Assembly: GCF_056746865.1 (NCBI RefSeq)
Contig: NZ_CM163382.1
Direction: 5' to 3' (one strand)
DNA: 64,000 nucleotides
Position numbers: made by a program. Below, piece by piece: positions 44,101 to 47,100 of the stretch (positions within the stretch are counted from its first letter, which is position 1; every line of letters starts with the position of its first letter).

Positions 44101-47100
44101 TGGACGATGCCGTTGAAGGACTGGCGAATGGCAATGAGCCGCTTTATTATCGAGTTCGGTGACCGCCTGGACGGTCACTTCTGAGAAAAGGCATTTACAC
44201 AGAATCCTAAACAGGCTCATTCAGACAGCTTTTTATTTCACTATGGCTATCCCAGAACAATCAGTACAAATAATAAAAGACATATCACAGCAACACTCCA
44301 CACTGACAGCGCAAAAATAAATGCCGCCTTTGTTATCTTCATATACAAGCAACCTGTCCTGATAATCACCAGCTCATGTTTTATTCTTAACCATTCGTCA
44401 CAAATACAACAAAAAATAACAGCAGCAGCACCGATATCACAATATAAGATACATTATTCAACACCTGAATCCCCCGCCGCTTCTCTCCCCTTTATAAAAC
44501 GCCCCTTCCGGAATCCAGACCGCTGCAGTGCACGACGAAGATGACCGTATACCGTCTTGTCATTCTGCCCCGTCTCTTCTGTAATCTCCGCAATACTTAA
44601 ACCTCTGTAATACCGGTTCAGTACCGCTCTGCGCTCTTCCAGCGTCAACACACCTCCGGCCGCTCTCAGATTCAGCATCGACTTATTCAGAATATGGATT
44701 TGCCCCTATATTTCCAGACACCTGTTATCACTTAACCCATTACTGGCCCGCTGCCGTAGATATTCCCGTGGCGAGCGATAACCCAGTGCACTATGCGGAT
44801 GCCATTCGTTATAATGCTCGAACGCCTCTGCAAGGTTCTTTGCTGCCGTTAACCCGTCTGGTTTAGGCATGATACTGATGTAGTCACGCTTTATCGTTTT
44901 CACGAAGCTCTCTGCTATGCCGTTACTCTCCGGACTCCGCACCGCCGTGTTCTTCGGTTCAAGCCCCAACATCCGGGCAAACTGCCGTGTTTCATTAGCC
45001 CGGTAGCATGAACCATTATCCGTCAGCCACTCTACTGGAGACGCCGGAAGCTCGTTGCCGAAGCGGCGTTCCACCGCTCCCAGCATTACGTCCTGTACTG
45101 TTTCACTGTCGAAGCCGCCCGTAGTGACTGCCCAGTGCAGTGCCTCACGGTCACAGCAGTCCAGCGCGAACGTGACTCGCAGTTTTTCTCCGTTATCACA
45201 GCGGAACTCGAACCCGTCAGAGCACCATCGTTGATTGCTTTCTTTCACGGCCACTTTGCCAGTATGTGCCCGTTTCGATGGCGGTACAGCGGTTTTTCGC
45301 TCAAGCAACAGCGCATTCTGGCGCATGATCCGGTAAACACGTTTGGCATTGATCGCAGGCATACCATCAAGTTCGGCCTGTCTGCGAAGCAGCGCCCATA
45401 CCCGACGATAACCATACGTGGGCAGCTCTCCGATAACATGGTGTATACGGAGAAGCACATCCGTATCATCTGAGTGACGGCTGCGGCGACCATCTTTCCA
45501 GTCATCGGTTCGTCTGAGAATGACGTGCAACTGCGCACGCGACACCCGGAGACAACGGCTGACTAAGCTTACTCCCCATCCCCGGGCAATAAGGGCGCGT
45601 GCGCTATCCACTTTTTTGCACGCCCGTATTCAACGGCTTCTTTAAGGAGTTCATTTTCCATCGTTTTTTTGCCGAGCAGGCGCTGGAGTTCTTTAATCTG
45701 CTTCATGGCAGCAGCAAGTTCAGAGGCAGGAACGACCTGCTCTCCTGCGGCCACAGCAGTAAGACTTCCCTCCTGGTATTGCTTGCGCCAGAGAAATAAC
45801 TGGCTGGCTGCCACACCGTGTTGCCGGGCAACAAGGGAGACCGTCATTCCCGGTTCAAAACTCTGCTGAACAATAGCGATCTTTTCCTGTGTAGTACGCC
45901 GTCTGCGTTTCTCCGGTCCTAAGACATCAATCATCTGCTCTCCAATGACTAGTCTAAAAACTAGTATTAAGACTATCACTTATTTAAGTGATATTGGTTG
46001 TCTGGAGATTCAGGGGGCCAGTCTAGAATACAGCAGGCCTCTCCGGTAAAAAGAATACGAACAATATCTGTATACTCATCATCACAGAATACAAAATAAT
46101 ATCTGAATGACCTGCCTGACTGCACCCTTCTTCTGTCTGATATGGCATCTTCTATATATCTGATTCGACTGCTTACGATTCCAAATATCTCTCGCAGGGC
46201 TTTTTCAAAATAAATATCTCTCGTCGCCAGGATTATATCCAGCATCTCTGTACCTCATTATATCCCGGGGGACTCCCCCATAAGCGCTAACTTAAGGGTT
46301 GAACCATCTGAAGAATGCGACGCCTCGGTGCCTCGTTAAGACGATGCCTCGCGTTCTTCAATTGCGTTTTGTAGGCTGTCAGGGATACTGTCCCACGAAT
46401 GGCCACCTGTAAGCTCCAGATGACCATTTTTGTTATTCTCCACAACGAGTTAGTTCTTCTTTTCGGATCCGGCACTTCTGGGGGGGAAATCCAGCGATGG
46501 CTGGATTATGTCGTCAATTAAAAATGCGGCGAGTAGATTAGCAAATATCCACGCTTTCGCGAGTTCAGGTTCCTTTGCACGCAAAGCATCCAGGTGCAGC
46601 AAACTTTTGAGCCGCTTAAAAGCCAGTTCAATTTGCCATCGCAGACGGTAACAATCAGCCACTTGCTCTGCTGAATATTCATCTTCCGGTAATGATGTTA
46701 GCAATAGCACATGGCCCGCTGCTTCCAGCGTTTCCGCCTGAACTACTCGTCCTTTTCGACGATTCTCGCTGAGCAGTCGGGTTTTACTGATTAATGCTTT
46801 TTCGGGAGGAAGTGATACGGCAATGAGACGTGCCGGAAAAGGAGCTCCGGCTTTTTTATTACCTGAATTGCCTATCATTACAGTGGTTTCACCGTTCTTA
46901 CCGCAATCCAGCCCGCGCAGAAAACCCATCATGTCAAAGCGCATTCCTTCTGCAGTTAACCAGCGCAATCCTCGCCAGTGAACCCGGACGATATAATCAG
47001 CTTCTCCAAAAGCAAGTGAGCGGATACATTCGGGACGCGAACCGAATCCCCGGTCAGCAATGCGTATCTCGTCTGCCGTTTGCGCAAATCGGTCCAGCCG

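Follow-up and report, generated by a model that had tools for sequence, protein, structure and literature searches.

In a 64,000-nt stretch of DNA (contig NZ_CM163382.1 of the NCBI RefSeq assembly GCF_056746865.1, hereafter called the window), a gene encoding a small helix-turn-helix (HTH) protein is interrupted by the insertion sequence IS2. The best overall explanation of this arrangement, and one that can be held with considerable confidence, is a recent insertion of IS2 into an HTH gene that does not code for a sigma factor, that belongs to an adhesin module and that received IS2 as a second hit after IS421. The event would be a simple insertion into the 151-aa accessory gene known as WP_000884152.1, with duplication of nucleotides 216-220 of the gene. 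It would have followed the two-step route of the IS3 family, in which a figure-of-eight intermediate gives rise to a minicircle whose integration leaves a direct repeat. By striking codon 73/74, the element would split an orphan N-terminal part from a C-terminal HTH of the region-4 type. The allele is an unremarkable case of IS2 transposition into an accessory gene that was already annotated.

The window contains a single copy of IS2, the features of which are collected in Table 1 together with those of the adjacent genes. The two ends of the element are imperfect inverted repeats, an IRL of 42 bp (TAGACTGGCCCCC..., which begins TAGACTGGCCCCCTGAATCTCCAGACAACC...) and an IRR of 41 bp (...GGGGCAAATCCA, which ends ...GGAAATATAGGGGCAAATCCA). 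On the + strand, the IRR-side junction (44690-44706) reads ...CAGAATA followed at the boundary by TGGATTTGCCCC..., and the IRL-side junction (46013-46035) reads ...GGGGGCCAGTCTA followed by GAATACAGC.... An A6G window for -1 frameshifting (GCA AAA AAG, within GCAAAAAAGTGG) lies close to orfA's 3' end at IS position 409, and a simulated -1 shift produces an OrfAB fusion of 409 aa, equal in length to the IS3-family transposases annotated by PGAP. The orfB product also matches the Pfam family HTH_21, besides rve and rve_3. In its 41/42-bp ends, its OrfA and OrfAB products and its A6G window, the element agrees with the published description of IS2 (PMC3299598). With the IS2 copy of strain 702/18 it shares 99.8% identity, and thousands of E. 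coli records contain matching places whose annotation is that of an IS2-family or IS3-family transposase. The transposase genes are co-directional with the disrupted HTH gene. This copy of IS2 is full-length and apparently functional. Compared with known simple insertions of IS2 in E. coli genes, the mechanism shows no difference and the insertion site alone is new with respect to 5426 complete genomes.

Table 1. Location of IS2, of the interrupted HTH gene and of the neighboring features in the window
Feature	Coordinates	Strand	Remarks
Complete IS2 (IS3 family)	44695..46025	-	1331 bp; IRL at the 46025 end, IRR at the 44695 end
IS2 orfA (InsC), 121 aa	45569..45934	-	ATG at IS position 92; Pfam HTH_Tnp_1, E 2.4e-19
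IS2 orfB (InsD), 301 aa, DDE integrase core	44706..45611	-	Pfam rve, E 8.5e-20; rve_3, E 1.7e-18
Target-site duplication GAATA, IRR side	44690..44694	.	5 bp, perfect, read on the + strand
Target-site duplication GAATA, IRL side	46026..46030	.	5 bp, perfect, read on the + strand
5' fragment of the HTH gene	46026..46245	-	Gene nt 1-220; residues 1-73 and the first base of codon 74
3' fragment of the HTH gene	44454..44694	-	Gene nt 216-456; contains the whole region-4-type HTH (aa 87-130)
IS421 (IS4 family)	46280..47616	-	Lies in the 61-bp adhesin-HTH spacer; HTH start codon 34 bp downstream
YadA-like trimeric autotransporter adhesin gene	47656..49476	-	Pfam YadA_anchor, E 3.7e-16; contains 99-nt tandem repeats

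The reality of the insertion was established by reconstructing the uninterrupted gene and by locating the empty site in other genomes. When IS2 and one copy of GAATA are excised in silico, the minus-strand segments 46245..46031 and 44694..44454 come together as 456 nt that are read as 151 codons and a stop, free of internal stops and frameshifts. IS2 thus lies after nucleotide 220 of the gene. The rejoined ORF is identical at 456/456 nt to the WP_000884152.1 gene of E. coli AR_0085 (L001, 8255-8710) and of CM2 (L002, 7765-8220); it occupies the same place downstream of a YadA-like adhesin gene, the copy of the window differing in being split by IS2. AR_0085, CFSAN061770 and CM2 all have the site in its uninterrupted state, with GAATA occurring once. 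In these genomes the left and right flanking matches share precisely 5 bp (GAATA), which defines the empty site. A 5-bp repeat would occur by chance with odds of about 1/1024, and it is the empty site, found in many genomes, that is decisive over these odds in showing the insertion to be real. The original prediction had recognized an IS2 element bordered by a GAATA duplication, and this stands: the element measures 1331 bp, contains all the parts of IS2 and is flanked by GAATA on both sides. The two verifications suggested with it were carried out: excision followed by translation gave a clean ORF, and the search for the intact gene in related genomes returned identical copies in AR_0085 and CM2. 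The further description of a ~160-aa ORF of the sigma-70 family with a region-4 HTH was correct as to the rejoining of the two halves and as to the HTH (PF08281); the length has to be amended to 151 aa and the assignment to the sigma-70 family abandoned.

The HTH gene is carried by 183 of 5426 complete E. coli genomes (~3%) and is exclusively chromosomal, its DNA not being found on plasmids. Up to six copies are present per genome, and many of the host strains listed are derived from poultry. In all but one of these 183 genomes, no less than 80% of the gene is contained in one place. The copies are nearly all at least 99% identical; of the few SNPs seen, one is synonymous and two are non-synonymous. 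The 151-aa protein occurs in exactly this form on at least 1000 contigs. Neither of the junctions of the gene with IS2 was found as a contiguous match in the 5426 complete E. coli genomes (0/5426), and the 89-aa ORF created by fusion with IS2 was not on record when looked up exactly in the contig index. The same locus was detected in the strains CS5L, CFSAN061770 and EC332 with 99.9% identity across 72% of a 9.5-kb query, and the uncovered 28% corresponds to the size of IS2 plus IS421. In CFSAN061770, both elements were directly seen to be absent. The order of the locus in these three strains is carbamate kinase, ISL3 remnant, IS1, IS256 fragment, HTH gene and adhesin gene. Taken together, the lack of either junction in 5426 genomes, the existence of insertion-free relatives and the zero divergence from the intact allele argue that the insertion of IS2 is a recent and strain-specific event. 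The original prediction of a recent simple insertion is thus upheld by the absent junctions and by the 456/456 nt identity to the intact allele.

IS2 is not the only element to have entered this module. The adhesin gene is the upstream, co-directional partner of the HTH gene, and in strain 702/18, where the spacer is devoid of IS421, the HTH gene begins 61 bp past the adhesin stop codon. Within this spacer lie a GC-rich hairpin (UCCCGGGGGGAGUCCCCCGGGA), a TATAAT box and, as ribosome-binding site, a GAGG Shine-Dalgarno motif placed 7 nt ahead of the ATG of the HTH gene (46245 in the window). The whole 70-nt stretch containing the hairpin folds at -27.2 kcal/mol, with z = -2.4. In the window, IS421 is inserted in the hairpin and separates the adhesin gene from the HTH gene. 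The surroundings contain an ISL3 remnant, IS1, an IS256 fragment, an IS5-like element, a SPATE autotransporter and CP4-type island genes, and no tRNA gene was found. The remnants of IS1, ISL3 and IS256 lie immediately downstream of the HTH gene, and the downstream homology of the module stops near position 44219. IS421 would represent a separate and earlier disruption, and IS2 would have struck afterwards, as the second element, in a decaying island rich in insertion sequences.

This setting raises the possibility, to be taken seriously even if somewhat doubtful, that the insertion of IS2 was neutral, the ORF being already silent or useless after the arrival of IS421 in a graveyard of insertion sequences and IS2 having simply landed in one of its preferred AT-rich, curved targets. 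The position of IS421 just upstream of the start codon and the IS remnants downstream are consistent with this reading, as are the GC contents of 38.6% in the 5' half of the HTH gene and 36.6% in its downstream flank. IS2 is reported to prefer intrinsically curved targets (PMC3299598), and at least six other independent IS2 sites, non-coding ones included, occur in or next to the module (702/18, SFE8, Jnd12, CM2, P0005 and P0007). Against neutrality, however, six further complete genomes preserve the ORF intact with IS421 upstream of it in the same arrangement, and the unaltered 151-aa protein is seen on the contigs counted above. Furthermore, IS421 and the ATG are still separated by the TATAAT box and the GAGG ribosome-binding site, so that the HTH gene could still be expressed alone.

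The IS2 sites in or beside the module amount to at least seven when the window is included. In Jnd12, IS2 lies in codons 3-5 of the HTH gene with a TAATC duplication, and in P0005 and P0007 it is found in the opposite orientation at residues 50 and 99 of the HTH protein, respectively. In 702/18 and SFE8 it is located ~210 bp and ~115 bp past the HTH stop, with duplications GCCAT and GAAGA, and in the fdrA-locus copy of CM2 it resides inside the adhesin gene. The HTH gene of other strains is affected by IS1 (nt 62-70), by an IS21-family element (nt 117-122) and by a 2.7-kb insert (nt 36-43), and a +1 T frameshift near nt 197 is shared by two genomes. The simplest reading of these repeated lesions is a regional hot spot for insertion sequences, on account of the AT-rich 5' half and flank of the gene and of the preference of IS2 for curved targets. 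Selection for loss is not claimed, since most copies of the HTH gene are uninterrupted. As a side observation, an orphan HTH module linked to an adhesin and repeatedly hit by insertion sequences is a mildly interesting residue of this analysis.

The consequences of the insertion for the gene product can be deduced from the two fragments listed in Table 1. The 5' fragment continues into the IRL to form the 89-aa ORF (45976-46245) mentioned above. In the 3' fragment, an internal ATG (Met78, at 44678) located 17 nt from the tip of the IRR opens a 74-aa ORF, and an identical 74-aa ORF is carried as a protein in older database records. As IS2 is interposed between the N-terminal part and the HTH, no full-length protein is possible and the allele is most probably null for the full-length product of the predicted regulator. 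It could be objected that the insertion yields a new product instead of a null allele, if an outward -35 of the IRR or read-through from the transposase genes drove the HTH-only fragment Met78-Glu151, which could bind DNA without its N-terminal domain. The IRR of IS2 does carry an outward -35, and promoters formed by fusion of the IRR with its flank are documented at ampC and acrEF (PMC9330008). In the window, IS2 is co-oriented with the gene, the IRR adjoins the 3' fragment that includes the entire HTH, and the flank at the tip of the IRR is TATTCT, a match of 4/6 to the -10 hexamer; with this flank abutting the IRR, a truncated product is conceivable. This alternative is nevertheless improbable. 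The Met78 ATG is preceded by AATAAGTCG, in which no Shine-Dalgarno sequence is recognisable, a consensus promoter scan returned nothing at the junction of the IRR with its flank, and the IS2 junction promoter strictly requires a 17-bp spacer (PMC3299598). A null allele remains the preferred reading.

The nature of this protein differs from what its older names imply. Its current RefSeq name is 'sigma factor-like helix-turn-helix DNA-binding protein', and older records bear names of sigma factors. ECF sigma factors need the sigma-2 domain for binding to the core enzyme and for recognition of the -10 element. Pfam identifies Sigma70_r4_2 (PF08281) over aa 87-130, at 30.7 bits, above the gathering cut-off of 25.7, as well as weaker generic HTH models over the same residues, and neither Sigma70_r2 (PF04542) nor Sigma70_ECF matches the 151-aa protein at E<=1. 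The NCBIfam model of the sigma70-ECF superfamily (TIGR02937) reaches only 19.0 bits against a cut-off of 42.9 and is aligned to aa 87-129 only; more generally, the NCBIfam sigma-factor models cover only aa ~80-130 and score 16-21 bits where their cut-offs are 43-220. A sequence search of the PDB returned exclusively region-4/HTH matches at E>=0.014. For the N-terminal 80 aa, phmmer against 1.84e9 representative proteins revealed no homologues outside this E. coli protein. That IS2 struck a true sigma-70 factor of the ECF type (group IV), so that an alternative sigma would be lost along with its regulon, is therefore most unlikely: the region-4 HTH above the Pfam gathering score, the ECF sigma models at the top of the NCBIfam matches and older names such as 'sigma-70 family RNA polymerase sigma factor' or 'RNA polymerase ECF-type sigma factor' speak for it, and they are outweighed by the missing region 2, by sigma-model and PDB alignments confined to region 4, by an N-terminus devoid of relatives and by the absence of an anti-sigma-like neighbour. 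Since it fails the test of the sigma-2 domain, the protein should not be filed as a sigma factor, and the target gene is, as far as its domain content can tell, not a true member of that class; on these same grounds (no region 2, TIGR02937 far below its cut-off, N-terminal 80 aa without homologues), the 'ECF-like sigma factor' of the original prediction has to be withdrawn. What is shared with the group IV sigma factors is the C-terminal region-4-type HTH, and what separates the target from them is its size of 151 aa, its lack of sigma-2, its unrelated N-terminus and its gene neighborhood.

Another possible affiliation is provided by the LuxR/FixJ (NarL-type) regulators, which are likewise small proteins with a C-terminal HTH of the region-4 superfamily; IMG indeed labels one member 'DNA-binding NarL/FixJ family response regulator'. 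The UhpA model gives a weak alignment (E 0.035, 13.9 bits against a cut-off of 258), and neither GerE (PF00196) nor Response_reg (PF00072) is among the Pfam families matched at E<=1. The target differs from these regulators in an N-terminal part (~80 aa) that is too short for a full receiver domain. A receiver-like N-terminus, considered on the basis of an alternating hydrophobic pattern and of the IMG label, found no profile support and is no more than a guess. A word-indexed search of 5.8e9 proteins and the phmmer search of the 1.84e9 representatives both gave only fragments and near-identical copies from E. coli, one entry bearing the label Salmonella, and the few generic multi-HTH proteins at the margin (E~3e-4) are uninformative. 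As both of these large searches return near-identical copies only, the protein is best regarded as an E. coli-restricted orphan that combines a predicted HTH of the region-4/LuxR superfamily with an 80-aa N-terminal part without relatives. The PHROGs profiles gave region-4 matches and a weak match of aa 3-108 to phrog_6585, a family of unknown function (E 6e-4). PADLOC returned no match for the protein, and tblastn found nothing in 50,697 phage records or in plasmids. An AlphaFold2 model built on the single sequence was unusable (pLDDT 38.7). No paper citing the protein accessions was found in the literature searched, and the article on the tkt1 island does not describe the adhesin-HTH module.

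The same order, adhesin gene followed by HTH gene, is observed in the fdrA/carbamate kinase, MliC/PTS/NanE and sodC contexts. Its recurrence in several unrelated chromosomal neighborhoods indicates that the pair behaves as a mobile two-gene module. Within this module, the HTH protein would act as a stand-alone DNA-binding transcription regulator, either tied to the expression of the adhesin or coordinating other genes. Regulators encoded in adhesin operons are known in MrpJ of Proteus and PapX of uropathogenic E. coli (UPEC), which possess an Xre-type and a MarR-type HTH, respectively, and which couple fimbriae to motility. A functional analogy with these proteins is proposed on the basis of a small HTH protein encoded directly after an adhesin gene; it does not extend to sequence, as MrpJ and PapX belong to other HTH families and have no sequence relationship to the 151-aa protein. 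On the strength of this analogy, it may be speculated that the module is a mobile unit restricted to E. coli, that its HTH protein is a new, lineage-specific regulator coupling the adhesin to other programmes, and that the IS and frameshift lesions reflect selection for switch-off and not just a region hot for IS2. Such a joint reading is an unlikely one, and the regional hot spot is retained here as the explanation of the lesions. Another candidate for comparison, the 'eYadA' adhesin of APEC (PMC12955052), was set aside: it occupies a different locus, and the gene downstream of it is lipoprotein-like and bears no resemblance to the HTH protein.

The chief use of the insertion described here is to mark the strain and to allow correct annotation. 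The two ORF fragments should be entered together as a single pseudogene disrupted by an IS and should not bear the name of a sigma factor. A modest side value resides in the orphan HTH protein itself, whose gene always accompanies that of a trimeric autotransporter adhesin and is a repeated target of insertion sequences. If this protein does regulate the adhesin or motility, the natural IS alleles would constitute ready-made test mutants.

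The module formed by the YadA-like trimeric autotransporter adhesin gene and the sigma factor-like helix-turn-helix (HTH) gene has been hit by IS2 repeatedly in E. coli. At least six further independent IS2 sites, in both orientations, were found in or beside it in other strains (loci L003, L004, L005 and L017, and proteins P0005 and P0007, whose HTH gene is interrupted); in strain CM2, it is the adhesin gene itself that carries the IS2. This number of independent sites points to the module region being a regional IS2 hot spot. The HTH gene also bears lesions of other kinds, which, together with short annotations, are represented by loci L009, L012, L013, L007 and L016. 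In other strains, the gene holds a 2.7-kb insert at nt 36-43, IS1 has entered it at nt 62-70, and nt 117-122 mark the site of an IS21-family element; two genomes carry a +1 T frameshift around nt 197. Several older annotations reduce the gene to its 74-aa C-terminal ORF, including cases in which it is intact.

A different element, IS421, occupies the 61-bp spacer between the two genes, where its insertion point is the GC-rich palindrome TCCCGGGGGGAGTCCCCCGGGA. The same site is occupied in strains AR_0085 and SFE8 by IS421 in the reversed orientation. Two separate hits on a site-specific palindromic hot spot, or else an inversion in situ, are the explanations that this suggests. The adhesin gene contains tandem repeats of 99 nt (33 aa), and it varies among strains in repeat number and in product length (388-606 aa). 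A TTG is listed as its start; an internal Met preceding a signal-peptide-like stretch is more likely to be the true one. Directly 3' of the HTH gene, an IS graveyard extends over window 42281-44220, and the homology shared with module copies in other contexts stops near 44219.

Features of the window and the published 'eYadA' locus
Feature	Position	Strand	Remarks
SPATE-type serine protease autotransporter	16254-20129	-	1291 aa, Peptidase_S6
ISL3 transposase remnant	42281-43144
IS1	43322-44019		complete-looking, with insA/insB
IS256 transposase fragment	44035-44184		49 aa
IS421	46280-47616		flanks 46263-46279 and 47617-47633
YadA-like trimeric autotransporter gene	47656-49476	-
YagK/YfjJ ('inovirus Gp2') family protein	52862-53428
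DUF3987 protein	55025-56911
YagK/YfjJ ('inovirus Gp2') family protein	57814-58545
IS5-like transposase	59529-60545
Published 'eYadA' adhesin (L006)	NZ_CP025328.1 519174-520898		E. coli ExPEC XM

The published 'eYadA' adhesin of APEC TW-XM is encoded at another locus than this module. Downstream of it come, in order, a 140-aa ORF with a lipoprotein-signal-like N-terminus and a 67-aa ORF. For the complemented 'eYadA' strain, the LD50 was still near the mutant value and motility was partly restored, at 1.35 times wild type, a difference from wild type that was not significant (PMC12955052). A polar effect on downstream genes is one possible explanation of this incomplete complementation.

In the wider surroundings, CP4-type island genes are carried at window 50887-58545, among them the two YagK/YfjJ family proteins and the DUF3987 protein listed in the table ahead of the IS5-like transposase, and no tRNA gene was found across the whole 64,000 nt. 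The presence of the SPATE-type autotransporter suggests that the E. coli background is a pathogenic one, similar to ExPEC/APEC.
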